NCBI GenBank assembly: GCA_027459505.1
Contig: DAIDIE010000021.1
Location: 92,504-156,503, forward strand
Direction of reading: 5' to 3'
Length of the DNA stretch: 64,000 nt
Source of the DNA: Acidobacteriota bacterium
GTDB taxonomy: Bacteria > Acidobacteriota > Terriglobia > Terriglobales > SCQP01
The translations under genes and the position numbers were made by a program. Within the stretch, counting starts at the first letter, position 1. Each line of letters starts with the position of its first letter. Below, in pieces: positions 8,021 through 44,415 of this stretch. A model generated the notes under the pieces. It saw nothing but the letters and a program-made list of their open reading frames with translations, was not told the DNA's origin and did not search any database.

Positions 8021-8193
8021 GCGGCACGGCCGCTTTTATTCCACTCGCTTCGGTGTCCGGCCGAAGCTCACGGATGGTGGCCGCGCTTTACTAGTCGCCA
8101 GCGGTGCGGGACCTGAACGGCAACCCCGGACCTTCGCTACGACTTCGGCCTGCGATCTCGAACTCGAAGGCAGTTCGACTCGGCCCTGGCTCG
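8021..8193 (+). repeat. Structured intergenic element, family 1, copy A (minimal core, about 173 nt)
   Basis: Starts with the hairpin GCGGC-ACG-GCCGC followed by TTTTATTCC and ends with ...CAGTTCGACTCGGCCCTGGCTCG. It aligns end to end with copies at 21327, 23693, 33739 and 44154 and lacks both optional modules. It ends 1 nt before the trmO stop codon. Confidence 0.9.
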
Positions 8194-8194
8194 T

Positions 8195-8668
8195 TTAGTT
8201 CCCGTTGGGCGGTTTGGCTGCCACCCGCGCCTCGGCCTCTCCAACCCAACCGCGGCGCAGGCGCTCGGCGGGAACGCTGGAAAGGTAGGGCTTAATGTCG
8301 AGCACAGGTGTGCCGTCCAGCATGTCCACGCCGCGGACGTGGAGTTGAGCTCCGTCGACCCGCAGCAGTTCCACGACGGTAAGGCCAAGCGGATTGGGGC
8401 GCATGGGAGAACGCGTGGCAAAGACGCCATGGGGCCGGTTGTCGAAGGGAGGACAGGCGATCAGCTCGGGCTCACCCTTGCGGCGGTCAAACACCCAGAT
8501 CACGAACAGGTGGGAGAAGCCCGCAATATCGGCCAAACCCGGCGCCAGTTCGGGTTTGAGTTGCAGTATGCCTTCAGCGTCGTGCCGGGCGCCGAGTCCG
8601 CGGGGAATTTGCGTGGTGTCAGAAAAAGGGGTGTGCGCGAAAGCAATGGGGTCCATGGCAAATGTCAT
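8195..8668 (-). CDS. trmO: tRNA (t6A37-N6)-methyltransferase TrmO / TsaA (YaeB) family
   Basis: ORF trimmed to the ATG at 8668 (MTFAMDPIAFAHTPF...). Characteristic motifs are FATRSPMRPNPLGLTVVELLRVDG...GVDMLDGTPVLDIKPY. ATGA start/stop overlap with the upstream gene at 8665-8668. Confidence 0.8.
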   Translation of the reverse strand: MTFAMDPIAFAHTPFSDTTQIPRGLGARHDAEGILQLKPELAPGLADIAGFSHLFVIWVFDRRKGEPELIACPPFDNRPHGVFATRSPMRPNPLGLTVVELLRVDGAQLHVRGVDMLDGTPVLDIKPYLSSVPAERLRRGWVGEAEARVAAKPPNGN

Positions 8669-11652
8669 TGTGTCTCTCCGTGTTGCCGTTCCGGCGCTCC
8701 ATCCAACACTTCGGCTAGATGCAAGGCGCGGCGTTGAGAATTCTGTGCCACCTGTTCCCGGCAACTGAAGCCGTTCGCCACGATCAGATCGCCGGGGGCG
8801 GCGGCGCGCACGTTGGGCAACAACACGCGTTCACCCAGCGCCTGGGAAACGGCATAGGCCTTCTTTTCAAAACCAAACGGGCCGGCCATACCGCAGCAGC
8901 CGGAATCGAGTAGTTCCACGTCCGCGCTGGTCTGGCGCAGCAAGTGCAAATCGTTGTCCAGCGAGAGCACCGCACGCTGATGACAGTGCGCTTGAACCAG
9001 GATGCGCCGTCCGTTGAGCTGAGGCGGCGTCCAGGACCGCCCCTCCGGGTAGAGGTGGTCCCGCTCCTGAGCGCGGCAAAGAACGTCGCTCAACATCTGC
9101 GTCTGCAGGCTGAGGCGCTTCGCACGGTCGTCATGCGGGAAGAAGTTCAAAAGCTCATCCCGGAAGACGCTGGCGCAACTCGGTTCGAGCATGACTACGG
9201 GAATGCCGGCGTCGATTTGCGGCGCCAGTTCCGTCAGAACGCGGCGCAGGTAACGGCGAGCCTCATCGAGAAAGCCGAAATCGTAAAGCGGACGTCCGCA
9301 GCAGATGTGCCGGGGCGAAATTCGCACGCGCTTGCCTTGCGCATGCAACAGGCGGGCGGCAGAGGCGAGCGCTTGCGGCTGAAAATAGTTGTTCCAGGTA
9401 TCGGCCCAGAGCAGGACCTCTTGTTCCGGCGGTGCATCCTGGCCGCGCTGGGAAGCGGCTTCCGCGGCGAGAAACCGCTTGCGGAAGCTCATGCCCGCCA
9501 GCAGCGGTAATGAGCGCTGGGGCGCGATTCCTAACAGCTTCTTGACGGCGCTGTTCACGCCCGGCAGACGACCGGGGAGATTCGCCAGCCAGGGGAGGTG
9601 GGAGCCCAGGTGAGCCCAGCGATCCATGAATCCAAATGCGTAGTGACTCAAGGGGTGGAGACGGCCCTGGTAATAGTGGGCGAAAAACTCGGCTTTCCAC
9701 GTCGCCATGTCCACATTGACGGGGCACTCGGTCTTGCAGGCTTTACAGGAGAGGCACAGATCGAGCGCCTCTTTTACTTCAGGACTCCGCCAACCTTGAT
9801 TCAGGACGCCGCCCTGGAGCATTTCCCAGAGCAGGCGCGCGCGACCGCGGGTGGAGTGCTTCTCCTCAAGCGTCACCATGTAACTGGGGCACATGACGCC
9901 GTGATCACGCTTCCGGCAGGCGCCAACGCCAACACAGCGCGTGGTGGCCTCGGCGAATGAGCCCTGATCGGCGGGATAGCGGAACCAGGTCTCGACTTGC
10001 GCCGGTTTGTATCCCGGACCAATGCGCAGATTTTCCGTGGCGTGGTAGACGGCGACCGGATCGATCAGCTTGCCCGGATTCATACAGTTGCCGGGATCCC
10101 AAAGGGCTTTGAACTCGGCAAAGGCGCGCATCAGCTCCGGGCCAAACATCTTTGGTAGCAGGTGGGCGCGCGCCTGCCCGTCACCATGCTCGCCGGAAAA
10201 GGAGCCCCCATGGCGCAGGACCAAATCGGCGGCCTTGTCGATAAACGCGCTGTACTTGTCCACTCCCTCGTTTGTCTGCAGATCGAAGGAGATGCGCAGG
10301 TGAACGCAGCCCTGGCCGAAGTGGCCGTACATGGGCGAGACATAACCGAACTGGCGCATGAGGGCGTTCAACTCGCGTAAATAGGCGCCGAGTTGCCCGG
10401 GGCGCACGGCCGAGTCTTCCCATCCCTCCCAACCGCTGGGTTCTCCGGGGACAAAGACCGAAGCGCCCAGGGCGGCTTCACGCACTTTCCAGATGCGCAG
10501 CGCCTCGGCTACGGTATAGCGGCCCCAGCCGGTCAATCCTGAAAGCCGCTTGGCGTCAGCGAGAAACGCGTCGACGGCGGCCTCAACGGCTTGATCAGAG
10601 TTGGCGCCAAACTCGCATAACAGAAAGCCGTCACCCTGGGGCAATAACTTCACGTCGTCGACGACCAGGTTCTTCTTCAACATGGACCGCACGAGGCGTC
10701 CATCGAAACCCTCCAATCCGATGGGAGCGTGCGCCAACACCGCCGGAACATGATCGGCGGCAATGAAAGCGTCGGTAAAGCCCAGCACCACCAGACGCCG
10801 GCATTGCGGACTCGGCTTCAAGGCGCAAAGCGCCCGCAGTACGGTAACGCAGGTACCCTCCGTGCCCACCAGGGCGCGAGCAACATGAAAGCCGTTTTCC
10901 GGCAGAAGCTGGTCGAGGTTGTAACCGGAAACCCGCCGTGGAATATCGGGGAAACGTTCCCGCACCAGATGCGCGTACTGATCGCGAATACGGCGCAGAC
11001 CGGCGTAGAGTTCACCGCGGCGACCGCCGCTCCGAATCATCGAATCGAGTTCAGCGTCCGTGGTGGCGCCTACCCGCATGCGCGTTCCGTCATAGAGAAG
11101 AACGTCGAGTTCTTCAATATTGTCGACGGTTTTGCCGCCCATTAAGGCGTGGACGCCGCAGGAGTTATTGCCGATCATGCCCCCGATGGTGCAGCGGCTG
11201 TGGGTGGCGGGATCAGGCGCAAAAGTCAGGCAATGCGCTTCCGCCTGGCGGCGCAGTTCATCGAGAACGACGCCGGGTTGGACCCAGGCGTTGCGCCGCC
11301 CGGCATCGAGTTCGGTCACCTGATTGAGGTACTTGGAAAAGTCGAGCACAACGGCGACGTTGCAGCACTGTCCCGCAAGGCTGGTGCCACCGCCCCGCGA
11401 AAGTAACGGCGCGTTGAATTCGCGGCAGGCGGCAACAGCGGTAACCACATCCTCGATATCCAGCGGCAACACTACTCCCAAAGGCACTTGCCGGTAGTTG
11501 GAAGAGTCGGTGGAATACAGCGCTCGTGAGCCCGCATCGAAGCGCACTTCGCCGCGAACGTTTTTTCGCAGCAGGGATTCCAGCGCCGCGCTCGCGGCAA
11601 AGCCTTCATGACTGTGGGCGGAGCGCGATGAAGAGGTAGGGCGGGATGACAT
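8665..11652 (-). CDS. FAD-linked oxidase fused to 4Fe-4S and CCG domains (GlcD-GlcF fusion, YdiJ-like 2-hydroxyacid dehydrogenase)
   Basis: 995-aa ORF. FAD_binding_4-type N-terminus (VVLPLDIEDVVTAVAACREFNAPLLSRGGGTSLAGQ), ferredoxin motif CLSCKACKTECPVNVDM, and a cysteine-rich C-terminal domain (HCHQRA...LLDSGCCGMAGPFGFEK). Confidence 0.88.
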   Translation of the reverse strand: MSSRPTSSSRSAHSHEGFAASAALESLLRKNVRGEVRFDAGSRALYSTDSSNYRQVPLGVVLPLDIEDVVTAVAACREFNAPLLSRGGGTSLAGQCCNVAVVLDFSKYLNQVTELDAGRRNAWVQPGVVLDELRRQAEAHCLTFAPDPATHSRCTIGGMIGNNSCGVHALMGGKTVDNIEELDVLLYDGTRMRVGATTDAELDSMIRSGGRRGELYAGLRRIRDQYAHLVRERFPDIPRRVSGYNLDQLLPENGFHVARALVGTEGTCVTVLRALCALKPSPQCRRLVVLGFTDAFIAADHVPAVLAHAPIGLEGFDGRLVRSMLKKNLVVDDVKLLPQGDGFLLCEFGANSDQAVEAAVDAFLADAKRLSGLTGWGRYTVAEALRIWKVREAALGASVFVPGEPSGWEGWEDSAVRPGQLGAYLRELNALMRQFGYVSPMYGHFGQGCVHLRISFDLQTNEGVDKYSAFIDKAADLVLRHGGSFSGEHGDGQARAHLLPKMFGPELMRAFAEFKALWDPGNCMNPGKLIDPVAVYHATENLRIGPGYKPAQVETWFRYPADQGSFAEATTRCVGVGACRKRDHGVMCPSYMVTLEEKHSTRGRARLLWEMLQGGVLNQGWRSPEVKEALDLCLSCKACKTECPVNVDMATWKAEFFAHYYQGRLHPLSHYAFGFMDRWAHLGSHLPWLANLPGRLPGVNSAVKKLLGIAPQRSLPLLAGMSFRKRFLAAEAASQRGQDAPPEQEVLLWADTWNNYFQPQALASAARLLHAQGKRVRISPRHICCGRPLYDFGFLDEARRYLRRVLTELAPQIDAGIPVVMLEPSCASVFRDELLNFFPHDDRAKRLSLQTQMLSDVLCRAQERDHLYPEGRSWTPPQLNGRRILVQAHCHQRAVLSLDNDLHLLRQTSADVELLDSGCCGMAGPFGFEKKAYAVSQALGERVLLPNVRAAAPGDLIVANGFSCREQVAQNSQRRALHLAEVLDGAPERQHGETQ

Positions 11653-11770
11653 AAACGGCAGTCGCAGCCGCCTACTACGTTAGCAGCCCGGAAGGAAGCT
11701 GTGGAAGGGGCGGGGAGAACAGAGCGCAAGGGGCGCCCGTCGCAATAGGCCTGCGGCCATTGCGAAGGGC

Positions 11771-15953: not shown

Positions 15954-15970
15954 CGGCTAGCCCTTTCCGG

Positions 15971-17300: not shown

Positions 17301-17517
17301 GAGGCACGGCCTCGTCTCCTGAGCCGCCCGCTGGCATTGCTTTCCGTTGGGTCACTGGCACGTTCTCCAGTGAGAACGTGAAGCCGCCGATGCCGGGCTC
17401 CTCTTCCGCGCGAGGGGGCCGCCCTTCCCACCCCAACAAAGCAAACTGCGCTTTGTTGGGGACCCCGGGAGAATTTCGCGGCCCTCCACCTGCGATCTCC
17501 TCCCGGTGGCTCGCTCC
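17301..17517 (+). repeat. Structured intergenic element, family 2, copy 1 (about 217 nt)
   Basis: Near-identical to 40478..40665 over its shared modules. It starts with the hairpin GAGGC-ACG-GCCTC and ends ...CCTGCGATCTCCTCCCGGTGGCTCGCTCC. It contains the 9-bp helix CACGTTCTC-CAGT-GAGAACGTG and an extra hairpin CCCCAACAAAGC...GCTTTGTTGGGG that copy 2 lacks. Confidence 0.9.
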
Positions 17518-20220: not shown

Positions 20221-21246
20221 TCAGGCGCGGGGATGATGCGCTTTGTACACCTGTCGCAAGCGCTGCGACACGACCTGGGTATAGATTTGCGTGGTCGAAA
20301 TATCGGCGTGCCCCAGCATGGTCTGTAGACTGCGCAGATCGGCGCCACGCTCCAACAAATGTGTGGCAAAACTGTGTCGCAGTAGATGCGGCGTCAGATG
20401 TTGCCGTATTTGAGCCTGGCGGCCGTAGGCCCCCAAACGCTTCCAAAAGGCTTGCCGCGTCATGGCCGCTCCGCCCCGGCGGGGGAACAGAAACGGGGTG
20501 GTTTTCCCACCCAAAATGCGCCCCCGCGCGGTACGGACAAAGCTCATGATGGCGCGCAGGGCCGATTGTCCTACCGGCACCAGACGCTCTTTATCGCCCT
20601 TGCCATGGCAGCGAACCACGCCCATCTCCGGGTCCAGGTCGCTATCCCGCAGCCGCACCAGTTCGCTGACCCGCAGGCCGCTGGCGTAGAGCAGTTCCAG
20701 CATGGCACGATCGCGTTGCGCCAGAGCCCAACTCAGACTCTGGGGAGCGCAGCGTAGTTGGCACGGCGCTTGCAGCAGCCGCTCCACTTCGTCCTGCGAC
20801 AAATACTTGGGCAGAGTGCGCCAGCTACGCGGCGATTCCAGGCCTTCACTGGGATCGTCGGCCCGTAGGCCGTCCAGGCGCAGATAGCGGAACAGGTTGC
20901 GCAGGGTAACAAGATGCCGGGCGGCGCTACGCGCGCTCAGCCCCTGGCCATAGAGCCAGAGCAGGAATTCCTGCAACTCGGTCCGGCCGCACACCAACAA
21001 GTGCCTTTCGGGTACATCTCCAGCCCAGCGCTGAAAATGTGCCAAGTCGAACGCATAGGACTTGAGCGTGTTGTCGGCCAGCCCCTTCTCGACCCGCGCA
21101 TAGTGCAGAAACGCTCCAGCTTCGGGCGGCAGCACGACTCCCGCATCTTCCCCTTTTCTGCTGCGCGACAACGGAAGACGCGATTCGCCCCGCGCTCCCG
21201 TAGCGCGCGGGCCACGGCTGGGCGAACTGGTCGCTTGCTCTGGCAT
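20221..21246 (-). CDS. Tyrosine site-specific recombinase, XerC/XerD type
   Basis: 341-aa ORF. It has an N-terminal SAM-like core-binding domain (FLHYARVEKGLADNTLKSYAFDLAHFQRW), catalytic-domain motifs GLRVSELVRL and HLLRHSFATHLL, and LGHADISTTQIYTQV. Confidence 0.85.
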   Translation of the reverse strand: MPEQATSSPSRGPRATGARGESRLPLSRSRKGEDAGVVLPPEAGAFLHYARVEKGLADNTLKSYAFDLAHFQRWAGDVPERHLLVCGRTELQEFLLWLYGQGLSARSAARHLVTLRNLFRYLRLDGLRADDPSEGLESPRSWRTLPKYLSQDEVERLLQAPCQLRCAPQSLSWALAQRDRAMLELLYASGLRVSELVRLRDSDLDPEMGVVRCHGKGDKERLVPVGQSALRAIMSFVRTARGRILGGKTTPFLFPRRGGAAMTRQAFWKRLGAYGRQAQIRQHLTPHLLRHSFATHLLERGADLRSLQTMLGHADISTTQIYTQVVSQRLRQVYKAHHPRA

Positions 21247-21326: not shown

Positions 21327-21653
21327 GGCGGCACGGCCGCTTTTATTCCACCCGTTTCGGTGTCCGGCCCCACCCCAAGCCGCGCCGCGCGGCTCGGGGA
21401 CCCCGGCCGAAGCTCACAGATGGTGGCCGCGCTTTACTAGCCCGCGTTCGTCGCATAGAGGCGCTTCTACAATCCAGCGGCATGCGGCTTTTTCTGTTAA
21501 AAAAAGCCGCACTCTTCTCCGTCCCAACGCCTCGCCCGGTGACGAACCCGGGCGTCGCCAGCGGTGCGGGACCTAAACGGCAACCCCGAGCCCTTTCTAC
21601 CCCTTCGGCCTGCGATTTCGACCTCGAAAGCAGTTCGACTCGGCCCTGGCTCG
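21327..21653 (+). repeat. Structured intergenic element, family 1, copy B (core + optional hairpin 1 + optional module 2, about 327 nt)
   Basis: Same termini as copy A. It carries the inserted hairpin CCCCAAGCCGCG-CCG-CGCGGCTCGGGG and a roughly 115-nt module bounded by CCCGCGTTCGTC...GACGAACCCGGG that contains the hairpin GCGGCTTTTT-CTGTTAA-AAAAAGCCGC (21484-21510). Confidence 0.9.
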
Positions 21654-23607: not shown

Positions 23608-23692
23608 GGCGCCTGGTGGTCGCCGCGGCTGGCAATGGCGGTGGTTTCCTCACCCAGAAAAGCAGCGCTCCTGCCAGCAGGCGGACCGTAGA

Positions 23693-24019
23693 GGCGGCAC
23701 GGCCGCTCTTATTCCACCCGCTTCGGTGTCCGGCCCCCCCCAAGCCGCGCGGCGCGGCTTGGGGGGCCCCGGCCGAAGCTCACGGATGGTGGCCGCGCTT
23801 TACTAGCCCGAGTTCGTCCCATCAGGGCGCTTCTTCGATCCAGCGGGATGCGGCTTTTCCTGTTGAGAAAAGCCGCACTCTTCTCCGCCCCAACGACTCG
23901 CCTGGTGACGAACTCGGGCGTCGCCAGCGGTGCGGGACCTGAACGGCAACCCCGGACCTTGGCTACGACTTCGGCCTGCGATTTCGAACTCGAAAGCAGT
24001 TCGACTCGGTCCTGGCTCG
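23693..24019 (+). repeat. Structured intergenic element, family 1, copy C (core + both optional modules)
   Basis: Same architecture as copy B. Hairpin 1 is a perfect 14-bp stem, CCCCCCAAGCCGCG-CGG-CGCGGCTTGGGGGG (23736-23766). The module 2 stem CCCGAGTTCGTC/GACGAACTCGGG is perfect, and its inner hairpin is GCGGCTTTTC-CTGTTGA-GAAAAGCCGC (23850-23876). The copy is flanked by 57-59-nt imperfect direct repeats. Confidence 0.9.
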
Positions 24020-24085
24020 CCATGGCAGTGGCTTCCTCACCCAAAGGCAGCGCTCCTGCCCACAGGCGGACCGTAGAGATTGTAA

Positions 24086-25783: not shown

Positions 25784-25924
25784 GCAACGTTTGCGCGGCT
25801 GGTGCACGCCCAGGTGTTCCTGCTGACCAGCGATTGCGGACATATCTCCAATGGCTGCCAGAGCGCGCAGCTCAACCCGGTGGTCAGGCGTTTCTGGCAC
25901 GGTAGCGGAACCTCTTCTCCGTAA
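25784..25924 (+). pseudogene. Relic C-terminus of a third MetX-like alpha/beta hydrolase paralog
   Basis: The frame of ORF 25583..25924 reads ...TFARLVHAQVFLLTSDCGHISNGCQSAQLNPVVRRFW. This aligns with the C-termini of 27395..28438 (HFAKLIHARIYMLTGDCGHLAFVCQSDQLSRVVGRFLA) and 28471..29496 (RFANLTHARVLLLTSDCGHLANGCQQPLIRAAVARFLA). No upstream hydrolase body is present. Confidence 0.7.
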
Positions 25925-27088: not shown

Positions 27089-27384
27089 TCCGGATCGGGT
27101 TGCCCGCTCACCTGCGCACGCTGGCACGCGTCGCCGGCGAAGTCGAACTCGATCTCACCGGCGCCGTGACAACCCGGCAACTGCTGGACGCGCTGGAGGA
27201 GGCCTACCCGGCGCTGCGCGGCACGATTCGCGACCAGGTCAGTTTTGAACGGCGGCCTTTTGTCCGCTTCTATGCCTGCGAGGAGGATCTCTCGCACGAT
27301 TCGCCGGACGCGGTGCTGCCGGAAACGGTACTGAACGGCAGTGAACCATTCTGGATCATCGGCGCCATCGCCGGTGGCGCATAA
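27085..27384 (+). CDS. MoaD/ThiS-like beta-grasp (ubiquitin-like) small protein ending in GGA
   Basis: 99-aa [49 protein letters not shown]...[15 protein letters not shown] overlap with the preceding BNR gene. Confidence 0.75.
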
Positions 27385-27394
27385 TCCAAAGATC

Positions 27395-28438
27395 ATGTGC
27401 TTTCGCCGCGTGACTCTCTCACTCTCTTTTGTCCTGGTGCTGGCGGGTATCCGCCTATGGCCGCAATGCAGTGCCCGCCAGCAGTTCGGCAAGCTCGGCA
27501 ATTTCAGGCTGCAAAGCGGCGCGGTGATTCAAAACCTCCAACTCGGCTACCGCGTCTGCGGCAAGCTTAAGGGAGACGGCGTCAACGCGGTGCTCTTCCC
27601 CGCCTGGTTCAAGGGCATCTCCAAACAACTGCTCGCCCATATTGGCCCCGGACGTTTAGTCGATGACAGCCGCTATTACGTGATCGCGATTGATCCCATC
27701 GGGGATGGCATCTCGACTTCTCCATCCAACAGCGCCACCCAGCCGCGTATGCAGTTCCCCCGCTTCACCATGGCCGATATGGTGCACGCCGAACACCGTC
27801 TCGCCGTGCGAGTTCTCCACCTGCCCCACGTGCACGCGGTCATCGGCATTTCCATGGGCGGTTTTCAGAGCTTCCAATGGGCGGTGCAGTATCCCACCTA
27901 CATGGACGAGGTCATCCCCATTGAGGGCTCGCCGCGGCTGACCTCCTACGATCTTTTCAAGCTGCGCACGCAACTGGCCATAATCCGCGAATCCAGTCTG
28001 TGGGACGGCGGCAATTACAGCGGCAATCCGGTGCTGCCCGGCCTGGAGCAGTTTGACTTTCTCACCCTGACCACTCCCGCGCGCCGCGTGGAGCGCACAC
28101 CGAGAGGGCAAACGGCCGCGCTGCTGCGCCGCGTGGATCAACCGAGCGGCACCCCGTTTGATCTCAACGACTATCTGCGCGTGCAACAGGCGATCGCGAC
28201 CACGGATGTAGCCGCGCCCTTTGGCAAGAATATGATCCGCGCCGCCGCACAGGTCAAAGCGCGCATGCTGATCATCCCCAGCCGCCAGGACCACGCCGTC
28301 TTCCCTGGCCCGGCGGAACACTTCGCAAAACTGATTCACGCCCGCATTTACATGCTGACGGGCGATTGCGGCCACCTTGCGTTCGTCTGTCAGTCCGATC
28401 AATTGAGCCGGGTGGTTGGCAGGTTTTTAGCGAAATGA
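27395..28438 (+). CDS. Secreted alpha/beta hydrolase of the homoserine O-acetyltransferase (MetX) family, paralog 1
   Basis: Trimmed to the ATG at 27395 (MCFRRVTLSLSFVLVLAGIRLW, signal-like). It has the MetX-like LQLGYRVCGKL...NAVLFPAWF and the nucleophile elbow GISMGGFQSFQWAVQYP. Confidence 0.8.
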   Translation: MCFRRVTLSLSFVLVLAGIRLWPQCSARQQFGKLGNFRLQSGAVIQNLQLGYRVCGKLKGDGVNAVLFPAWFKGISKQLLAHIGPGRLVDDSRYYVIAIDPIGDGISTSPSNSATQPRMQFPRFTMADMVHAEHRLAVRVLHLPHVHAVIGISMGGFQSFQWAVQYPTYMDEVIPIEGSPRLTSYDLFKLRTQLAIIRESSLWDGGNYSGNPVLPGLEQFDFLTLTTPARRVERTPRGQTAALLRRVDQPSGTPFDLNDYLRVQQAIATTDVAAPFGKNMIRAAAQVKARMLIIPSRQDHAVFPGPAEHFAKLIHARIYMLTGDCGHLAFVCQSDQLSRVVGRFLAK

Positions 28439-28470: not shown

Positions 28471-29496
28471 ATGTATCGACGTTGGATCCGCACCCTAGCT
28501 GTTTCGCTGCTGCCCGCATCTCTTTTCGCCGCCGGCGGCTGCACCGCACCGCAACAATTTGCGCAGCTCGGCAATTTTGCGCTGCAAAACGGCAAGACCA
28601 TTCAAAATCTGCGGCTCGGGTACCGCATCTGCGGCCAGCTCAAGCCGGACGGCTCCAACGCTATCCTCTTCCCCGCCTGGTTTACCGGGCGCAGCGAACA
28701 ATTGCTGGGGCTGGCGGGAGATCAGGCACTGGTCAGCGATAAGCGTTACGCGATCGTCTTTATTGATCCGATTGCCGACGGGGTCTCCACCTCGCCATCC
28801 AATAGCGCTTCGCAACCTCGCATGCAGTTTCCGCGCTTCACCATGGAGGACATGGTTCACGCCGAGCATCGCCTGGCGACCAGGGTGCTGCACCTGCCGC
28901 ATGTGCGCGCCGTAATGGGCATCTCCATGGGAGGCATGCAGACATTTCAGTGGATGGTCTCCTATCCGCGCTACATGTCAATGGCAATTCCCATCGTGGG
29001 TTCACCGCGGCTGACGGCTTTTGACCGGATGCTGTGGAGCACTGAAATTGGCGTGATCCGGCAGACGCCGGGCTGGAACAACGGCAACTACCAGAGCAGC
29101 CTCAACCTCAGCCTCCTGGACCAGATCCACAACATGTTCCTGCGGACACCAGCCTGGTACGCCACTCACCCGTTCACGCCCACACCACAGGCGCACAAGG
29201 TGTTCGACGCCAATGACTGGATCCGCCAGGCGCAGGCCATGCTGTCGCTCAACGTTGGCGGCCCATACGGCAATCATCTGGCGGGCGCGGCAGAGCGGGT
29301 CAAGGCGCGGCTGCTGATCGTGCCCTCCAAACAGGACCACATGGTCAACCCACTGCCCGCCGAACGTTTCGCCAACCTGACCCATGCCCGGGTTCTACTG
29401 CTCACCAGCGATTGCGGGCACCTGGCGAACGGCTGCCAGCAGCCGCTGATCCGCGCCGCCGTGGCCCGCTTCCTGGCTACGCCACCAAAGAAGTAG
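28471..29496 (+). CDS. Secreted/lipoprotein alpha/beta hydrolase of the MetX family, paralog 2 (tandem duplicate)
   Basis: 341-aa ORF collinear with paralog 1 along its length, with the motif GISMGGMQTFQWMVSYP. The N-terminus LLPASLFAAGGC resembles a lipobox. Confidence 0.8.
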   Translation: MYRRWIRTLAVSLLPASLFAAGGCTAPQQFAQLGNFALQNGKTIQNLRLGYRICGQLKPDGSNAILFPAWFTGRSEQLLGLAGDQALVSDKRYAIVFIDPIADGVSTSPSNSASQPRMQFPRFTMEDMVHAEHRLATRVLHLPHVRAVMGISMGGMQTFQWMVSYPRYMSMAIPIVGSPRLTAFDRMLWSTEIGVIRQTPGWNNGNYQSSLNLSLLDQIHNMFLRTPAWYATHPFTPTPQAHKVFDANDWIRQAQAMLSLNVGGPYGNHLAGAAERVKARLLIVPSKQDHMVNPLPAERFANLTHARVLLLTSDCGHLANGCQQPLIRAAVARFLATPPKK

Positions 29497-30062: not shown

Positions 30063-30244
30063 CAGCCAGACCCGAGTCGAACTGATTTCGAGTTCGAGAT
30101 CGCAGGCCGAAGTGAGCCGGTTGCCCTTCAGGTCCCGCACCTCTGGCGACTCGTCAAACCCGGTGAGCCGCTAGTCAAACCCGGTGAGCCGAGTGTGAAC
30201 CTCGGCCGGTGTCCAAGCGGCTGGCAAAAAGGGGGCCGTGCCGC
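30063..30244 (-). repeat. Structured intergenic element, family 1, diverged copy F (only copy in minus orientation)
   Basis: The reverse complement reads AGCGGCACGGCCCCCTTTTTGCC...GTCGCCAGAGGTGCGGGACCTGAAGGGCAACCGG...CTTCGGCCTGCGATCTCGAACTCGAAATCAGTTCGACTCGGGTCTGGCTG. It contains an internal 21-nt tandem duplication (30153-30170 and 30174-30191). Confidence 0.8.
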
Positions 30245-30312: not shown

Positions 30313-31560
30313 ATGGCGACCAAAGTAGTGACGTTCGTTCTTGCTGGCGGCGCCGGGAATCGGCTCCTGCCCCTCACGGAAGATGGAGCAAAGCCGGCCG
30401 TGCCGTTCGGAGGCAGATACCGGATCATCGATTTCGCGTTGAGCAATCTGATCAACTCTGGCCTGTGCTCGATTTACGTTCTCGTGCAATATCGGAGCCA
30501 TTCGCTGTTGCGGCATTTACGCGACGGCTGGCAGTTCGGCGGGCTTCTCCAGGAACAGTTCATCATTCCCGTGCCCGCGCAGATGCGGACGGAAGACGAT
30601 TTCTGGTACCGCGGGACGGCCGACGCCATTTATCAAAACCTTTCCCTGCTTGACGTTCCGGAAGACGGACTGGTAGCAATTTTCAGCGCGGATCATATCT
30701 ATCGAATGAATATCCGGCATATGATCGACTTCCACGAGCGGATGGGTGCGGATGTGACCGTGGCGGCCATCCCGGTCCCGCAGCACATGGCAACCGCCTT
30801 TGGCGCCATTGAAGCTGATGCGAGCGGGGCCATCCACGGCTTTCACGAAAAGAGAGAGAGCGCGCCCTCAATCCCTTCCGACCCCGGAATGATCTATGCC
30901 TCCATGGGCAATTATGTTTTTACTGCCAAGGCCTTATACCGGGAGTTGCAGGCCAATGCCGAACGGCCAAGCAGTCAGCACGATTTTGGGCGAGACATCC
31001 TGCCGCAAATGGTGGGGCGCTACAATATGCGCGCCTACGATTTTCGAACGAATGAGATCCCTGGCGAACCCGTTCCGGCGCCGGCGTATTGGCGTGATGT
31101 GGGCACACTTGACGCCTATTACGAGGCCCAAAGGGACTTGTGCGGCCCGCTGCCTTTGCTCAACCTTTATAACCCGCGTTGGCCGATTCGGACGGCGAGC
31201 TACCCGGATCCCAGTGCGAAGTTCACGATTGACGAGCATGGCCGCCCTGGCCGTGCCACCGGCTCAATCGTTTCCGGCGGATGCATCCTGTGCGGCGGCT
31301 CGGTAACCGGGTCTGTCCTGGGCCGCAATGTCAGGATTCAATCGGAGGCGAGCGTTGAAGACTCCATTCTGTTCGACAACTGTACCGTGGGAGCCAGAAG
31401 CGTGATCAGGCGCGCGATCATTGACGAGGGGGTCCAGATCCCTGAAGGAGTGTCGGTCGGGGTTGACCGCGCCGCGGACGTGTCGCGCTATCCCATCACG
31501 AACGCCGGCGTTGTTGTCGTCACAAAAAAGGCAATTAACACCAGCGGCGGGGCGGGCTAG
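30313..31560 (+). CDS. glgC: Glucose-1-phosphate adenylyltransferase
   Basis: 415-aa ORF: VLAGGAGNRLLPLTEDGAKPAVPFGGRYRIIDFALSNLINSG...VLVQYRSHSL, with a C-terminal left-handed beta-helix region. Confidence 0.92.
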   Translation: MATKVVTFVLAGGAGNRLLPLTEDGAKPAVPFGGRYRIIDFALSNLINSGLCSIYVLVQYRSHSLLRHLRDGWQFGGLLQEQFIIPVPAQMRTEDDFWYRGTADAIYQNLSLLDVPEDGLVAIFSADHIYRMNIRHMIDFHERMGADVTVAAIPVPQHMATAFGAIEADASGAIHGFHEKRESAPSIPSDPGMIYASMGNYVFTAKALYRELQANAERPSSQHDFGRDILPQMVGRYNMRAYDFRTNEIPGEPVPAPAYWRDVGTLDAYYEAQRDLCGPLPLLNLYNPRWPIRTASYPDPSAKFTIDEHGRPGRATGSIVSGGCILCGGSVTGSVLGRNVRIQSEASVEDSILFDNCTVGARSVIRRAIIDEGVQIPEGVSVGVDRAADVSRYPITNAGVVVVTKKAINTSGGAG

Positions 31561-33191: not shown

Positions 33192-33539
33192 TGGCGAAGA
33201 CCCTTTCTCGATCTGGCGAACAGGGCAGCGCCACTACTTCGGCAACATGCTCCCCATGGGAAAAGACTCTCCGCCAGCATTTCCATGAGGCTGAGCTTAT
33301 CATCATTATTGATTCCCACGAGGTGAGCCGAGTGCCGAAGGGGACGGAATCAATCATCTTGCCGCCGCGCACCGCAGTAAATGTGAGTGAACCCCGGGGG
33401 CTGCCGCAGAACCATATTGAGGAACAAAGGTATCGATGCAGAAGCTCCAGTTCAGGTTGCCGTTGGCGGGTGTACGCTCAGCGCCGCAGCCGCTCATCTC
33501 AGGATTGGAACCGGTTCGATCTCACTGCCGTTCAAGCTG

Positions 33540-33731
33540 GATGTCCAGACAAAGAATCCGCCAGAACTGCTCACTTCTCTTCGCTTTCCCAGATGCCTGT
33601 GCAAGCAACTCAGGGTCGCCGACCTCATTGAACGCATGTTCGTGGAGGTTCGGCGCAGAACCCGGCCCGTGGTCCGCTGCTTCGATATCGACTGCGCTGA
33701 CCGGATGCTTTTCTCGATCTTGCGCCGCTAG
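33540..33731 (+). pseudogene. 3' fragment of an IS256/Mutator-family transposase
   Basis: The frame of ORF 33387..33731 ends ...PPELLTSLRFPRCLCKQLRVADLIERMFVEVRRRTRPVVRCF. This matches the conserved C-terminal IS256 pattern (..LLtFfdFP..hw..lRTtN.IErlf.E.RRRTrvv..F). No intact upstream transposase body is present. Confidence 0.6.
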
Positions 33732-33738: not shown

Positions 33739-33950
33739 GCGGCACGGCCGCTTTTATTCCACCCGCTTCGGTGTCCGGCCCCACCCCACGCCCCGCGGCG
33801 CGGCGTGGGGACTCCGGCCGAAGCTCACGGATGGTGGCCGCGCTTTACTAGTCGCCAGCGGTGCGGGACCTAAAGGGCAACCCCGGATCTTCGCTACGAC
33901 TTCGGCCTGCGATTTCGAACTCGAAAGCAGTTCGACTCGGCCCTGGCTCG
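33739..33950 (+). repeat. Structured intergenic element, family 1, copy D (core + optional hairpin 1 only)
   Basis: Identical termini to copies A-C. Hairpin 1 variant is CCCCACGCC...GGCGTGGGG, and module 2 is absent (CTTTACTAG directly joined to TCGCCAGCGGTGCGGG, as in copy A). Confidence 0.9.
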
Positions 33951-38296: not shown

Positions 38297-38357
38297 GGTC
38301 TATCCGGCTGTGGTGAGGGTCGGTTCATCCGAGCTTTAGCTGCTTCGAGGCACTATT

Positions 38358-38867: not shown

Positions 38868-39096
38868 GCGGGTGAGCACAGGACCGCGTCACGGCCGGCG
38901 GCAGCTTCTCAGAGACCAGCAAGACCATGTCAGGCGTGACATCAGATGGCGCTCCCGCCGGTGATGAAGGCGCGGTTGGCCTCCTCAACGCCGCCGCCGC
39001 GCTAATGAGTACTTTACCGGGAAGTGTGTCGAGAGAGTGGGCCGAGCGCTTCAGTTTCCCAAAGCGGAAATACCTTGCCTATGGGAACATTGGAAC

Positions 39097-39399: not shown

Positions 39400-39450
39400 C
39401 GCCAGACTCGCAAGGCTCAGGCGCCGGTGGCGCCCTGCGGAAGGGCGCCG

Positions 39451-39534
39451 CTTCACTATCGAGACTTCACCAGCTAGACTTCACCATCTAGACTTCACCA
39501 GCTCGACTTCACCGGGTAGGCTTCACCAGGCAAG
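39451..39534. repeat. Tandem repeat, six units of 14 nt (consensus CTTCACCAGCTAGA)
   Basis: Units start at 39451, 39465, 39479, 39493, 39507 and 39521 with an exact 14-nt period. The CTTCAC(C) core is invariant and the 3' half drifts. The array is intergenic, between convergent genes. Confidence 0.9.
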
Positions 39535-39735
39535 GACGCCCGCGCCCTTCCAGCACGAGAGGCGGGCCAGAGCGCGGCTCCTCCAGGAAAGGGACGCGCA
39601 GGCTTAGCTCCACACATCTGCCTCCCTGCGCCGTGTAGAACACCTGTGCCGCCGTGTTCTGCTCCAGGGCCCCAGAGGTAGAGCTTGCGCCTGCCGCTCC
39701 CGATCCCGCGTCCAGCGATCACCCCTTCTCTTCAC

Positions 39736-40377
39736 CTACCCCACGGGGATGATGCCGCTCGTTCCGGGATGCTCCGCGTTGCGATCGTGAGGGCCGGTGG
39801 GGCCGCCGCTACGCGTTTTGCCGCTCCAGGCATCGAGGTCGACGGCCACCACCTCGGTAATGTCGAGATGTTGGGGGGTGGCCGCCTCATAGTCACGTCC
39901 CGCGGCGCGCTGCGGAAAATAGCGGTCTATCATTGCCGCCAGGACGCGCGCCTTTTCGCTCTGTTCGGTAACCAGCCGCCCTTTGCCAAAGCAGACTACG
40001 CTCCGGTAGTTCATGGAGTGATTCAACGCCGTCTTGGAAGCAATCAGCGCGTCCAACTCGGTGACGGTCACGCACAGGGGCTGACCATTGGCCATCTGCG
40101 CCATTGCCCGGCTCTCCAGGCCGCCATGCAGATACATCGTTCCCAGCCCCGCGGCGTCGGCCTCAAAGTGATACGTAAAGGGAATAACAAAGGGCTGACC
40201 GTCCTGCACGAAACCGGCATGCGCGACTCTGCCCGCGAGCAGGAACTCCGCGCAACGCTCCGGTACCGAGCGCTCCTTGTGCTGCTTCATGCTGGCGCGC
40301 AGTTCAGCACTCGAAACCGGACATTGACCGGTGGCGCGAGGGGTATTGTTGTTGAGTTCTGCCGAACGCGTGGACAT
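39736..40377 (-). CDS. Pyridoxamine 5'-phosphate oxidase-family flavoprotein (Pyridox_ox_2 / NimA-like)
   Basis: Trimmed to the ATG at 40377, preceded by AGGAG. Sequence: FLLAGRVAHAGFVQDGQPFVIPFTYHFE...MYLHGGLESR...NYRSVVCFGKGRLV...AMIDRYFPQRA. Confidence 0.75.
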   Translation of the reverse strand: MSTRSAELNNNTPRATGQCPVSSAELRASMKQHKERSVPERCAEFLLAGRVAHAGFVQDGQPFVIPFTYHFEADAAGLGTMYLHGGLESRAMAQMANGQPLCVTVTELDALIASKTALNHSMNYRSVVCFGKGRLVTEQSEKARVLAAMIDRYFPQRAAGRDYEAATPQHLDITEVVAVDLDAWSGKTRSGGPTGPHDRNAEHPGTSGIIPVG

Positions 40378-40477
40378 GGGATTCTCCTGAACTGAATTCC
40401 CTTTCAACGTTACGCCGGAAGTGGCACTATGTACACGTCCACTTTTGCCGGCATTGATGGTGCCACTTCCGGCAGGC

Positions 40478-40665
40478 GAGGCACGGCCTCGTCTCCTGAG
40501 CCGCCCGCTGGCATTGCTTTAGGTTGGGTCGCTGGCATGTTCTCCAGTGAGAACGTGAAGCCGCCGATGCCGGGCTCCTCTCCCACACGAGAGAGCCGCC
40601 CTTCGGAATTTCGCGGCCCTCCACCTGCGATCTCCTCCCGCAGGGAGGACTCGGTGGCTCGCTCC
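40478..40665 (+). repeat. Structured intergenic element, family 2, copy 2 (about 188 nt)
   Basis: Aligns with 17301..17517. It lacks the CCCCAACAAAGC hairpin but has a complete terminal hairpin TCCTCCC-GCA-GGGAGGA. Its last base is 2 nt before the mocR-like start codon. Confidence 0.9.
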
Positions 40666-40667
40666 TT

Positions 40668-42266
40668 ATGGCGACACGCGCAACCGCATTTCCGCTGCAC
40701 CTCCGTCTGGACCACGGCAAGCCGCTCCAGCAGCAGCTCTACTGGCGTCTCCGGGAAGCCATCCTGCAGGGCCGCCTGCGCGCCGGGCTGCGCCTGCCCT
40801 CGTCGCGCAGCCTGGCGCAAGAACTGGGAGTGGCGCGCAACACGGTGACCGCGGCCTTCGAGATGCTGGTGGCGGAAGGATACGTGCGCTGCCGCGGCGG
40901 GGCGGGAACATTTGTCTGCGCGGAACTGCCGGAAGCGCTTCTGCACGCCGCCACTCCCGCGCCGCCGCCATCCAGGCCCCAGCCGCACGACAACGTTTCT
41001 GGGAACGGCAGCTTGCCCGCGCGCGGCAACAGCCCCGCGCCCAGGCTGCGGGTCTCGTTGCGCGGCCGCACCCATTTACAGGACTGGCCGGGAGCGGATC
41101 GCGGCGGCCAGCTCGCTGTACGGCACCGCCCGGCCCAAGCTCCCGGTAAAGACACAACGCCCAGCTTGCCGCCGCTTCTGCCCGCGGGACCCGCGCTGGA
41201 ACACTTCCCCGTCGAACTGTGGGGACGGCTGCTGGCGCGCTGCTGGCGCCGCAGCCCCTTGCGGCTGCTCGCCTCCGGCGATCCCCAGGGCGATTGCGAC
41301 CTGCGTCAGGCAATTGCCGCCTACCTGGGCAGCGCGCGCGGCGTGCGCTGCGAAGCCGGACAGGTGGTGATCACTTCCGGTTCACAACAAGCCATCGACC
41401 TGGCCGCGCGGGTGCTGCTCAACGGAGGGGAACAGGCCTGGCTGGAGGACCCTGGTTACTGGGGCGCGCGCACCGCTTTGCGCGCCGCCGGGGCCGAACT
41501 GATTGCGGTTCCCGTCGATGAAGAAGGCTTGAACCTCGGCGACGCGCTGCGGCGCGGCCCCCAAGCCCGTTTGGCTCTGATTACCCCCTCGCATCAGTTT
41601 CCCCTCGGCGTCACCATGAGCCTGGCGCGCCGTTTTGAGCTGTTGCAGTGGGCAGCCTCCCACGATGGCTGGATACTGGAAGACGATTTCGACAGTGAAT
41701 TCCGCTACACCGGGCTGCCGCAAACCGCCCTGCAGGGCCTGGATACGGAAGGGCGCGTCATCTATCTGGGGACCTTCAGCAGGGTGCTATTCCCCGCCCT
41801 GCGCATTGGGTATCTGGTGCTGCCGCCCGATCTGGTGGATGCGTTTGTCGCCGCACGGGCTGCCGCCGGCTGGCAATCCGCCGTGCTGGAACAACAGGTA
41901 TTGGCCCGCTTCATCGCCGAGGGCCACTTTGGACGCCACCTGCGGCGTATGCGCCATATCTATGGGGAGCGCCGCCAGGCGCTGCTGGACGCTCTGCAGG
42001 CTCTCTCCGGCTGGCTGGAGGCGCCGCCGCCGGATTGCGGTCTGCACGCCATCGGATGGTTGCGGGCGCCGCGCGCCGCAGCCCGCCTAGTGCGCATGCA
42101 GGAGGCCGCCCGCACCTGTGGCTACGGGCTGGTTTCGCTGGCTCGTTTTTGCGGCGCGGCGCAACCGCCCCCCGCCCTCGTCTTGCCCTTCAGCGCGGAA
42201 GACGTCCGCACGATTCGCCGCCGCATTCATCTTTTGGCGCGCACCCTGCAGGGAGCGACGCCATGA
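40668..42266 (+). CDS. MocR/PdxR-type regulator (GntR winged helix + class I aminotransferase-like PLP domain)
   Basis: 532-aa ORF. The N-terminus YWRLREAILQGRLRAGLRLPSSRSLAQELGVARNTVTAAFEMLVAEGYV is a GntR HTH, and a long aminotransferase-fold C-terminus follows (ITPSHQFPLGVTMSLARR...YLGTFSRVLFPALRIGYLV). Confidence 0.88.
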   Translation: MATRATAFPLHLRLDHGKPLQQQLYWRLREAILQGRLRAGLRLPSSRSLAQELGVARNTVTAAFEMLVAEGYVRCRGGAGTFVCAELPEALLHAATPAPPPSRPQPHDNVSGNGSLPARGNSPAPRLRVSLRGRTHLQDWPGADRGGQLAVRHRPAQAPGKDTTPSLPPLLPAGPALEHFPVELWGRLLARCWRRSPLRLLASGDPQGDCDLRQAIAAYLGSARGVRCEAGQVVITSGSQQAIDLAARVLLNGGEQAWLEDPGYWGARTALRAAGAELIAVPVDEEGLNLGDALRRGPQARLALITPSHQFPLGVTMSLARRFELLQWAASHDGWILEDDFDSEFRYTGLPQTALQGLDTEGRVIYLGTFSRVLFPALRIGYLVLPPDLVDAFVAARAAAGWQSAVLEQQVLARFIAEGHFGRHLRRMRHIYGERRQALLDALQALSGWLEAPPPDCGLHAIGWLRAPRAAARLVRMQEAARTCGYGLVSLARFCGAAQPPPALVLPFSAEDVRTIRRRIHLLARTLQGATP

Positions 42267-43324
42267 GCGGCCGCAAGATTGTCCACGTCGATATGGACGC
42301 CTTTTACGCCTCGGTGGAACAGCGCGACAAACCGGAATTGCGCGGGCGCCCGGTGGTGGTCGCCTGGCGCGGCAATCGTTCCGTGGTCTGCGCCGCCTCT
42401 TATGAAGCGCGGCGCTTCGGCGTGCACTCGGCGATGCCCGCGCTGCGCGCCGAACGCCTCTGCCCCGCGGCGATCTTCGTGCCTCCCGATTTTTCCCGCT
42501 ACCGCGCCGTCTCCCAGCAGGTCCGCGAGATTTTCCGCCGCTACACCGACCTTATTGAACCCCTCTCGCTGGACGAGGCCTACCTTGACGTCACGGTTAA
42601 CAAGCCCGCCCTGGAGACCGCAACCCAGGTCGCGCGGCTCATTCGGCAGCAGATCCGCGAAGAGCTGCGGCTGACCGCTTCAGCGGGCGTGGCGCCCAAT
42701 AAATTTCTGGCTAAGATCGCCTCGGACTGGCGCAAACCGGATGGGCTGTTCGTCATCCGCCCCGAGCAGGTCGACGGCTTTCTCGCGCCCCTGCCAGTCG
42801 AACGCCTGCCCGGTGTTGGCAAGGTCACGGCGGACCGGCTCAATGTACTGGGGATCAAGTCAGTTGCCGATCTGCGCACCTTCACCCTGGAGGAACTGGA
42901 GCAGCGCTTTGGGCGCTATGGGCAGCGGCTCTACGAGTTGGCGCGCGGCATCGACGAGCATCCGGTTACCCCCAACCGCCCCACCCGTTCGATTTCCGCG
43001 GAAGACACCTTTCCCAACGATCTCACCCTGGCGGAGTTGGAGCCGGTCATCCGCACGCTGGCGCAAAAGGTCTGGGCAGCCGCGAGGCGCGAACAGCGGC
43101 CGGCGCGCACGGTGGTGCTGAAGTTGAAGACGCCGGAGTTCAAGATCCTTACCCGCAGCTACACGCCGCCGGCGCCCCCCGCCAGTGTCGAGGAGGTCAT
43201 CGCCATCGCGCTGGAGTTGCGCGCCCGCGTCCTGGCGCTGCCGCGCCAACGCTATCGTCTGGCCGGGGTGGGACTGAGCAACTTCATTGATCCCAATACG
43301 TATTTCCCGCCCCGGCTGTTTTGA
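42263..43324 (+). CDS. dinB: DNA polymerase IV (Y-family)
   Basis: ORF trimmed to the ATG at 42263: MSGRKIVHVDMDAFYASVEQRDKPELRGRPVVV...EPLSLDEAYLDVT...AGVAPNKFLAKIASD. ATGA overlap with the mocR-like stop. Confidence 0.92.
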   Translation: MSGRKIVHVDMDAFYASVEQRDKPELRGRPVVVAWRGNRSVVCAASYEARRFGVHSAMPALRAERLCPAAIFVPPDFSRYRAVSQQVREIFRRYTDLIEPLSLDEAYLDVTVNKPALETATQVARLIRQQIREELRLTASAGVAPNKFLAKIASDWRKPDGLFVIRPEQVDGFLAPLPVERLPGVGKVTADRLNVLGIKSVADLRTFTLEELEQRFGRYGQRLYELARGIDEHPVTPNRPTRSISAEDTFPNDLTLAELEPVIRTLAQKVWAAARREQRPARTVVLKLKTPEFKILTRSYTPPAPPASVEEVIAIALELRARVLALPRQRYRLAGVGLSNFIDPNTYFPPRLF

Positions 43325-43335
43325 GGCGTGGCCAG

Positions 43336-43380
43336 CGCGGCACGGCCGCTCTTGTCCACACGCTCAGGGAATCCGGCCAG
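43336..43380 (+). repeat. Solo 5' stub of the family 1 element (P1 hairpin + about 30 nt) acting as the dinB 3' hairpin
   Basis: GCGGCACGGCCGC-TCTTGTCCACACGCT..TCCGGCC matches the first roughly 45 nt of family 1 (GCGGCACGGCCGC-TTTTATTCCACCCGCT..TCCGGCC). The rest of the element is absent. It begins 12 nt after the dinB stop. Confidence 0.6.
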
Positions 43381-43411
43381 CAACCGCGCGAGCCGCGAGC
43401 AGCATGCCACG

Positions 43412-43774
43412 TTAGAGTGTCAGCGGCAAGTCGAGTTCAACGCGATCATAAACGACCTTTGGTGTGATACGCCCCCGTTCGCCCCGTTCCAACCCGACTA
43501 GACCATAGCCTTCCATGGTCCGCAGCGTGCGCGAGAGGTTTGACTTCGCCCGGCCAGTGATCCTGGCCAGTTCCTCCAACGAACCTGGCGCCCTTTCTGC
43601 GATAACTCGAAGCAACTCGCGATTTCCGGCGGACAGCACCCTGGCAAACGACTCCGTTGAGGTAAACCAGACCTTCGGCTCGTCCGCGGACACGCGTCGC
43701 TTGCCAGCGGCTACCGCCATCGTGCGAGCCTTCATTTGCTCATAGCTGGCAATACCAACTTTCAGGGTGCTCAT
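43412..43774 (-). CDS. MarR/winged-helix DNA-binding protein, putative antitoxin partner of the upstream TumE-like gene
   Basis: Trimmed to the ATG at 43774 (MSTLKVGIASYEQMKARTMAVAAG...NRELLRVIAERAPGSLEELARITGRAKSNLSRTLRTMEGYGLV). There is a 4-nt gap after the upstream gene and a GAGGAG RBS. GC is lower than in the flanks by eye. Confidence 0.65.
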   Translation of the reverse strand: MSTLKVGIASYEQMKARTMAVAAGKRRVSADEPKVWFTSTESFARVLSAGNRELLRVIAERAPGSLEELARITGRAKSNLSRTLRTMEGYGLVGLERGERGRITPKVVYDRVELDLPLTL

Positions 43775-43778
43775 AAAA

Positions 43779-44117
43779 TTACTCCTCGCTCTCGCAAAAC
43801 CGAATCCAAAAGTCCGCAAGCAAAGCCGCCGCATCCCGGTATTTGTAAGGTTTGATCGTCTGGAGTCGATGACGATGATCATAAGGTTCTTCAGACTTTT
43901 GTCGCCCAATCCGATGTGCGTTATCGAAGCCTACCAACCGCTCGCCACCCGGACCATGAAGGGTCAGGGAATAATCAATTCCGTGTGGCTTCTCTGGCGT
44001 AACCGGTACCCGTGTAACTACGAAACGCACCCAGTATTCACCAGCAGCATCGACGACAAACACCTGGCCATCGAGATCAAGCAGCAGATTGAGCGTTGGA
44101 TCGCGCGGCCTAGCCAC
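43779..44117 (-). CDS. DUF6516 / TumE-like putative toxin
   Basis: 112-aa ORF with a GTG start: ...YWVRFVVTRVPVTPEKPHGIDYSLTLHGPGGERLVGFDNAH...YDHRH. The pattern is as I recall it for TumE-family proteins and needs an HMM check. Confidence 0.5.
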   Translation of the reverse strand: MARPRDPTLNLLLDLDGQVFVVDAAGEYWVRFVVTRVPVTPEKPHGIDYSLTLHGPGGERLVGFDNAHRIGRQKSEEPYDHRHRLQTIKPYKYRDAAALLADFWIRFCESEE

Positions 44118-44153
44118 CCCTCATAGTTATCACAACGACATAACGGACGCAAG

Positions 44154-44415
44154 GCGGCACGGCCGCTTTTATTCCACTGCTTCGTCGTCTGGCCCCCACC
44201 CCGGCCGAAGCTGACGGGTGGTGACCGCGCTTCACTAGCCCGAGTTCGTCACACCACGGCGCTTCAGCAATCGAGCGGCATGCGGCTTTTCCTGTTGGTA
44301 AAGGCCGCACTCCTCTCCGTCCCAACGATTCGTCTGATGACGAACTCGGGCGTCGCCAGAGGTGCGGGACCTAAACGGCAACCCCGGTACAGCAGTTCGA
44401 CTCGGCCCTGGCTCG
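44154..44415 (+). repeat. Structured intergenic element, family 1, copy E (module 2 present; penultimate hairpins deleted)
   Basis: Same P1 hairpin and 3' end (CAGTTCGACTCGGCCCTGGCTCG). The module 2 stem CCCGAGTTCGTC/GACGAACTCGGG is perfect. It lacks the segment CTTCGCTACGACTTCGGCCTGCGATTTCGAACTCGAAAG found in the other copies. Confidence 0.85.

Follow-up and report, generated by a model that had tools for sequence, protein, structure and literature searches.

What kind of element recurs between the genes in this part of an Acidobacteriota genome: a family of structured RNA genes, or a family of DNA repeats that has spread? The stretch in question (64 kb of contig DAIDIE010000021.1, positions 92,504 to 156,503; hereafter the window) had been predicted to carry seven copies of a modular, hairpin-rich element, referred to here as family 1, as well as a second family, "family 2." We find nine copies in the window, six full copies and one stub of family 1 and two copies of "family 2" (Table 1), at a density of about one copy per 5 kb across 45 kb. 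Our view is that these are probably non-autonomous dispersed DNA repeats of the BIME, RIME, BOX or miniature inverted-repeat transposable element (MITE) kind, constituting one lineage-specific superfamily that is moved by an enzyme encoded elsewhere. The family is previously undescribed; the kind of repeat to which it would belong is well known. It is not a demonstrated new RNA gene, and the reading of the copies as RNA is unproven.

Common ends and two interiors

A profile made with nhmmer from the six full copies and run over the window recovers exactly copies A–F, with E-values from 1e-42 to 1e-70, touches the stub only weakly (43337–43377, E=0.086) and yields no further matches; a covariance model (CM) of the core returns the same A–F set. 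Diagnostic words of 12–13 nt tell the same story, occurring six to eight times in the window where 0.1–1 occurrences would be expected (GGTGCGGGACCT six times against 0.5, CAGTTCGACTCGG six times against 0.1 and GCGGCACGGCCGC eight times against 1). All seven predicted loci of family 1 are present, and far above chance. The stub shares about 85–90% identity with the 5′ end of the family across its first 27–29 nt and is unrelated beyond.

Judged from their sequences, the two copies of "family 2" (G1 and G2) belong with family 1 in one superfamily with two interiors. Specifically, both families begin with a 5-bp hairpin that has an identical 3-nt loop, GCGGC-ACG-GCCGC in family 1 and GAGGC-ACG-GCCTC in "family 2," where the second pair of the stem has changed from C:G to A:T and the change is compensated, giving G(C/A)GGC-ACG-GCC(G/T)C for the superfamily as a whole. 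The word GGCACGGCC stands at positions 3–11 in nine of nine copies, out of 12 matches in the window where 2 would be expected. At the other end, 45 nt are common to both families (CCTGCGATCTC...GACTCGG..TGGCTCG; alignment p<0.001 against shuffles), and the 3′ end of the superfamily can be written as CCTGCGATYTC, a subterminal hairpin, and then GACTCGG..TGGCTCG. That hairpin, which lies between CCTGCGAT and GACTCGG, reads TTTCGA-AC-TCGAAA in family 1 and CTCCTCCC-GCA-GGGAGGA in G2, at the same position. Likewise, an optional hairpin closed by CCACCCCA..TGGGGACCCC is present in both families; in G1 its foot, CCACCCCA...TGGGGACCCC, is that of module 1 (described below), and its tip is different. 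When one enzyme recognizes a set of units at their ends, conserved asymmetric ends combined with differing interiors are what is usually seen.

Between these ends lies a core of about 170–185 nt, which may be interrupted by modules. Once the modules are removed, the cores of A, B, C and D are exactly 173 nt each; A, C and D are 96.5% identical to one another, B stands at 92–93%, E at 90–92%, and F is further removed (Table 1) and appears from its divergence to be the oldest copy. The modular architecture that had been described is present, with small corrections of size and with the addition that in E most of module 1 is missing too. A 33-nt GC-rich hairpin and a second CCGGCC make up module 1, 39 nt in total: CCGGCC is single in A and occurs twice in B, C and D, bracketing the hairpin, and in E the duplication is kept and the hairpin is gone. 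Module 2 is a clean insertion of 114 nt between CTA and GTCGCC, and its ends are perfect inverted arms of 13–14 bp in C and E (GCCCGAGTTCGTC...GACGAACTCGGGC). The similarity of the cores is independent of module content, such that C, which has both modules, is equally near to A, which has none, and to D. This suggests that modules have been repeatedly gained or lost, or that the cores have been homogenized by conversion. In addition, the copies include one that is truncated (the stub), one that carries a deletion (E) and one that carries a duplication (F), which is decay typical of mobile DNA.

Table 1. Copies of the repeat superfamily in the 64-kb window
Copy	Coordinates	Strand	Composition and detection
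A (family 1)	8021–8193	+	bare 173-nt core; nhmmer E=1e-53; CM 212.7 bits
B	21328–21653	+	core, module 1 (39 nt), module 2 (114 nt); nhmmer
C	23694–24019	+	core, module 1, module 2; nhmmer
D	33739–33950	+	core, module 1; nhmmer and CM
E	44154–44415	+	core, module 1 remnant (CTGGCC-CCCACC-CCGGCC), module 2; 37-nt deletion in 3′ domain
F	30063–30244	-	inverted; 79–80% identical to other copies; internal 21-nt tandem duplication
5′ stub	43337–43380	+	hairpin plus about 30 nt; blastn E=4e-4, nhmmer E=0.086, CM E=2.6
G1 ("family 2")	17301–17513	+	family termini, different interior; CCACCCCA..TGGGGACCCC hairpin module at 17427–17470
G2 ("family 2")	40478–40661	+	family termini, no module 1; extra 3′ subterminal hairpin arm at 40641–40653

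Recent multiplication within one lineage

The host is a member of the Acidobacteriaceae; the product of its glgC gene (30313–31560) is at best 82–83% identical to proteins from Acidobacteriaceae and Terracidiphilus metagenome-assembled genomes (MAGs). The closest relatives, defined by that level of GlgC identity, contributed about 160 kb of sequence surrounding glgC, in which neither nhmmer nor the covariance model nor a motif search found a copy; the covariance model, a check suggested with the original prediction, was built from the core and run on both the window and these relatives, and it returns the copies of the window only. Wider searches were equally unproductive. A 20-mer that is invariant in six copies gave a single chance match among 185,579 species genomes, in a coding region of an unrelated Desulfovibrionaceae MAG; this same 20-mer, which comes from the core, had zero matches in the JGI metagenomes; and an invariant 3′-end pattern had ten matches in metagenomes, all in coding DNA (one of them, L017, inside a TonB_C open reading frame), and zero in viral contigs. 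Plasmids and phages gave no match by blastn, the translation of a spurious open reading frame that runs across B had zero matches among 5.8 billion proteins and 1.84 billion representatives, and full-text literature searches with the diagnostic sequences, and on repeats in Acidobacteria, produced nothing relevant.

The relatives' regions hold no comparable repeats, except for one (L020). There, between positions 35 and 3760, an unrelated REP-like hairpin, CGAGTGACCGGCAACTCGGACAT, occurs in at least eight copies within 4 kb, in both orientations and beside a fragment of an IS110-type transposase. That this relative has a hairpin family of its own suggests that lineage-specific palindromic repeats are normal in the Acidobacteriaceae.

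With cores that are 92–96.5% identical, composite variants at several loci and no copy in the nearest relatives, the superfamily has multiplied recently within its lineage. It has survived only between genes: on a gene map based on G+C content at third codon positions and backed by Pfam, every copy lies in an intergenic region, in agreement with what had been predicted. Considered together, the shared termini and module, the absence from relatives and the high identity of the cores speak for DNA repeats that have spread recently rather than for a conserved family of RNA genes.

Ends, hairpins and a possible mode of movement

If these are mobile units, their ends should be informative. The eight copies tested all lack a target-site duplication of at least 3 nt, even when their boundaries are allowed to shift by as much as 3 nt, and a convincing terminal inverted repeat is likewise missing, the ends being GCGGCACGGCC... 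and ...CCTGGCTCG. There are, in both families, terminal or subterminal hairpins at both ends, with a stem that has been kept through sequence change, and eight of the nine copies point in the same direction (two-sided p~0.04). The lack of duplications and of real inverted repeats, the hairpin-bearing ends and the shared orientation point to a hairpin-recognizing or site-specific mechanism rather than to a transposase of the DDE type.

We infer that a protein whose gene lies outside the window would act in trans to drive the spread, by recognizing the conserved hairpin-bearing ends. A single-strand, hairpin-recognizing mechanism (HUH/Y1-type, similar to that of IS200/IS605 or of RAYT proteins) or a site-specific mechanism would fit these ends better than that of a MITE moved by DDE cut-and-paste. 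The modules, which are palindromic, are nested inside the unit and are gained or lost cleanly. When present in the mRNAs of neighboring genes the hairpins would fold, and they may terminate or stabilize transcripts, an effect that would be a side effect and not the reason for the family.

Several observations weigh against dispersed DNA repeats of this kind. The window contains neither a mobilizing enzyme nor a full-length master copy, and it offers no empty site to compare: the intergenic DNA of the relatives does not align, either upstream of glgC or downstream of a radical-SAM gene, and synteny with them stops 22 nt upstream of glgC. Because the view is of 64 kb of one genome, a history of regional duplication may also account for the pattern. 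The bias in orientation is weak, and with a GC skew as slight as -0.018 orientation could not be linked with replication. There is no conserved 4–5-nt target abutting either end of the copies; the best candidate, TATGG, is found with at most one mismatch at five of eight copies, which is not significant relative to random intergenic sites (p~0.67). In addition, known Y1 transposases bind hairpins that are longer than the 5-bp one at the terminus here. Finally, substitutions among A–D fall in 14 of 79 columns predicted to be unpaired and in 4 of the other 94, in a structure derived from the same sequences; such a bias would also be expected of a functional RNA.

Readings of the copies as integron attC sites or Xer sites were considered and rejected. 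The copies do not form an integron attC or gene-cassette array: their sequence contains no R″/R′ core sites (RYYYAAC...GTTRRRY), and they are separated by 0.8–9 kb of DNA in which both strands carry housekeeping genes. A reading of the copies as integron or Xer sites meets the same absence of core sites, and the recombinase gene next to copy B (20221–21246, minus strand, 81 nt from the 5′ end of B) encodes a XerD equivalog (TIGR02225, 334.9 bits against a cut-off of 329.6) that, by this match, looks like the housekeeping XerD and not like cargo of the element.

Could the copies be RNA genes?

The alternative that survives best, which we nonetheless consider unlikely, is that the copies are a multicopy family of structured noncoding RNAs, either small RNA genes or cis-acting modules, in which a two-domain core of 173 nt accepts optional stem insertions at its loops. 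Consistent with this, the insertions are located at hairpin tips or between domains, and the three compensatory double changes that had been cited in the hairpins are indeed present. In the predicted fold, the two most conserved blocks, GCCAGNGGTGCGGG and CTCGGNNCTGGC, are complementary and pair in a 12-bp helix that is retained even in the deleted copy E, and the concentration of variable positions in unpaired columns is in keeping with the same idea.

However, the further step from compensatory changes and wobbles to an RNA structure read from the plus strand does not withstand analysis. The antisense strand folds as well as the sense strand or better in six of eight copies, and the bare cores of A and F have no extra stability relative to dinucleotide shuffles (z of -1.2 and -0.8), strong z-scores being confined to the near-perfect palindromic modules. 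Covariation in the core is not significant, as a double change is seen in only 1 of 47 pairs and 90 of 500 shuffles reach the same score, with six sequences that afford little power. Broken pairs are as common as compensated ones (in module 2, two of 38 pairs are compensated and about six are broken). Neither a promoter resembling that of sigma-70, in or before the copies, nor a 3′ terminator at them could be found, and the sole terminator-like feature, a hairpin followed by TTTTATT, is at the 5′ end.

Comparison with known RNAs is likewise negative. A cmscan of the whole window against Rfam at the gathering score reports tRNA only, and scans of B–C, A and G1 at E<=10 report noise of 9–20 bits, far below the cut-offs, in keeping with the earlier failure to match the element to a known noncoding RNA; Acido-1, Acido-Lenti-1, HEARO and ribozymes are among the families left unmatched. 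The relatives lack the family, truncated copies occur, and the copies are found in convergent, divergent, sense and antisense intergenic settings with no tie to the direction of the neighboring genes. The evidence for an RNA structure is weak; the data indicate that the hairpins matter on either strand, as DNA or as RNA, and do not single out plus-strand RNA as the functional form.

Other explanations for the repeats

It is also worth considering that the copies could be classical MITEs, derived from an insertion sequence (IS) with a DDE transposase and moved by cut-and-paste, an explanation that we regard as improbable. The statement that no transposase, TnpB/IscB, reverse transcriptase or Cas gene accompanies the copies is correct for intact genes, none of which, nor any RAYT (Y1) gene, is found by Pfam or NCBIfam among about 60 open reading frames in the window. 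It has to be amended for a remnant of an IS256/Mutator transposase, a degenerate C-terminal piece (33387–33731, plus strand) that ends 7 nt before copy D and that would make an IS256-like element one candidate parent. The remnant matches NCBIfam NF033543 with E=3.6e-5 and Pfam PF00872 with E=0.045 (profile positions 316–369 of 379), and a second frame has a faint DBD_Tnp_Mut match. Also in keeping with classical MITEs are the inverted arms of module 2, perfect over 13 bp, and a likeness between the two termini. Read directly from the sequence, the 5′ terminus agrees with the reverse-complemented 3′ terminus at 8 of 11 positions in family 1 and at 10 of 14 between the families. This end similarity is weak, however, and the 5′ end (GNGGCACGGCC, with TGGCTCG at the 3′ end) is itself palindromic. 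IS256 elements make duplications of 8–9 bp, and neither these nor any others are present at the eight copies; furthermore, the remnant has no homologue in the protein collection, such that no IS ends are available for comparison. Given the missing duplications and its position beside only one of the nine copies, we read the remnant as co-located with D in a permissive intergenic region.

Host-maintained punctuation of DNA or RNA (bidirectional terminators, insulators, or sites for nucleoid proteins or topoisomerases), with similarity kept by gene conversion and not by transposition, seems quite improbable, even though such roles have been proposed for REP sequences and BIMEs. The terminator-like 5′ hairpin lies 7–90 nt past a plus-strand stop codon at four of the seven family-1 loci, and the near-identity of the A, C and D cores whatever their module content is compatible with conversion. 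Nonetheless, the terminator-like end is wrongly oriented at A, B and F, the other 160 nt are left without an explanation, and relatives that have the same genes do not have the repeat. Less probable again is that the 173-nt core is a trans-acting structured nucleic acid for an enzyme encoded elsewhere, either a scaffold resembling a guide or bridge RNA or the single-stranded DNA substrate of a new hairpin-recognizing recombinase; if it were, the dispersed copies would be orphan units, devoid of cargo, that belong to a transposition system without duplications or inverted repeats, and the mobility mechanism would be new to the Acidobacteriota.

Relation to known repeat families

Reading the copies as dispersed DNA repeats invites comparison with families already described in other bacteria, each of which they resemble in part. 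The BIMEs of Escherichia coli and the RIMEs or Sm-repeats of rhizobia are similarly intergenic, dense, non-coding and restricted to a single lineage, and are built from palindromic and non-palindromic modules that can be combined. In contrast to these, there is no sequence similarity and no REP unit tagged by GTAG or CGTC (no such tag is conserved before the hairpins), the copies are single and do not form alternating inverted pairs, and the superfamily has fixed asymmetric ends and a long constant core of 173 nt. The BOX elements of Streptococcus pneumoniae and the bcr repeats of the Bacillus cereus group share with it constant ends, optional internal modules, a length of about 100–350 nt, stable predicted hairpins with some compensatory changes, the lack of a linked transposase and both orientations relative to genes. 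Their sequences are unrelated, however, and neither the complementarity of the BOX A and C ends nor the TTTAT duplications made by bcr1 has a counterpart here.

With regard to the mode of movement, the closest parallels are the IS200/IS605-derived PATEs and the REPIN/RAYT systems, which depend on HUH Y1 enzymes and which also lack terminal inverted repeats and target-site duplications, carry hairpins at or near both ends, show a bias in orientation and keep the stem by compensatory change between subfamilies. The superfamily has the subterminal hairpins at both ends, without inverted repeats or duplications, by which PATEs are recognized, and lacks their conserved target of 4–5 nt; its end hairpins are dissimilar to one another, the 5′ one having a stem of only 5 bp, and the window contains no Y1 gene. 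Classical MITEs (Correia/NEMIS, ERIC, RUP and Nezha) are likewise small, non-coding, multicopy and intergenic, with nested insertions and decaying copies, but in them terminal inverted repeats are clear and short target duplications occur; both features were sought here and are absent.

Genomic context and other features of the window

The individual settings of the copies illustrate how closely they approach genes. Copy A lies between the stop codon of TrmO (8195), from which its end is 1 nt away, and the start of an FGE-sulfatase gene (7949), antisense to both. Copy B is located between the start of XerD (21246, minus strand) and the stop of a SnoaL gene (21695, minus strand), and copy C between convergent genes for a DUF190 protein and a malectin-domain protein. 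Copy D starts 7 nt past the stop codon of the transposase remnant, and copy E is 42 nt upstream of AbiEii. The end of G2 (window 40655–40670) falls 6 nt before the ATG of a gene for a GntR/aminotransferase (MocR-type) regulator, which places the ribosome-binding region of the regulator inside the repeat.

Two further observations concern sequences related to or touching the copies. An imperfect direct repeat of 57–59 nt, about 88% identical, abuts both ends of copy C (23635–23693 and 24022–24078); it is far longer than any target duplication made by a transposon and is an unexplained oddity. At 6290–6345, an intergenic segment contains the core-like AGAGGTGCGGGA, then a hairpin, GGAGCGG-CGAGA-CCGCTCC, and then TCCACCCGCTTCG, which is identical to part of the 5′ region of family 1. 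This may be a rearranged or degenerate relative, and it falls below the thresholds of both nhmmer and the covariance model.

The window has other features of note. AbiEii and a downstream AbiEi-like gene (44458–45237 and 45221–45844, plus strand) form a toxin-antitoxin pair, and a second such pair, ParD/ParE, is found at 51773–52659 (plus strand). A tRNA-Ala(GGC) gene (61231–61306, plus strand) is directly followed by a tyrosine integrase gene (61318–62490, minus strand), and the two probably mark where the chromosome meets an integrated island or prophage reaching past 62.5 kb. Five tandem 14-nt repeats resembling CTTCACCAGCTAGA lie at 39451–39520, flanked by genes for a Dabb-domain protein and a pyridoxamine-oxidase-like protein, and could be an iteron-like or regulator-binding array. 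Lastly, two paralogous alpha/beta-hydrolase genes stand in tandem at 27341–28438 and 28471–29496 (plus strand) with about 72% DNA identity, and a conserved segment of 57 nt related to this pair is present at 25805–25861.

Significance

As it stands, the superfamily adds one family to a well-known class of repeats and changes no concept. The Acidobacteriota are nevertheless abundant soil bacteria with mobile DNA that is poorly catalogued, and a repeat of this kind would be of use as a marker in typing strains and in judging the quality of assemblies. It could also cause rearrangements and affect expression; copies come within 1–7 nt of stop codons and within 6 nt of a start codon. If the partner enzyme were found, the superfamily would provide a tractable case for studying how elements without terminal inverted repeats or target-site duplications move.

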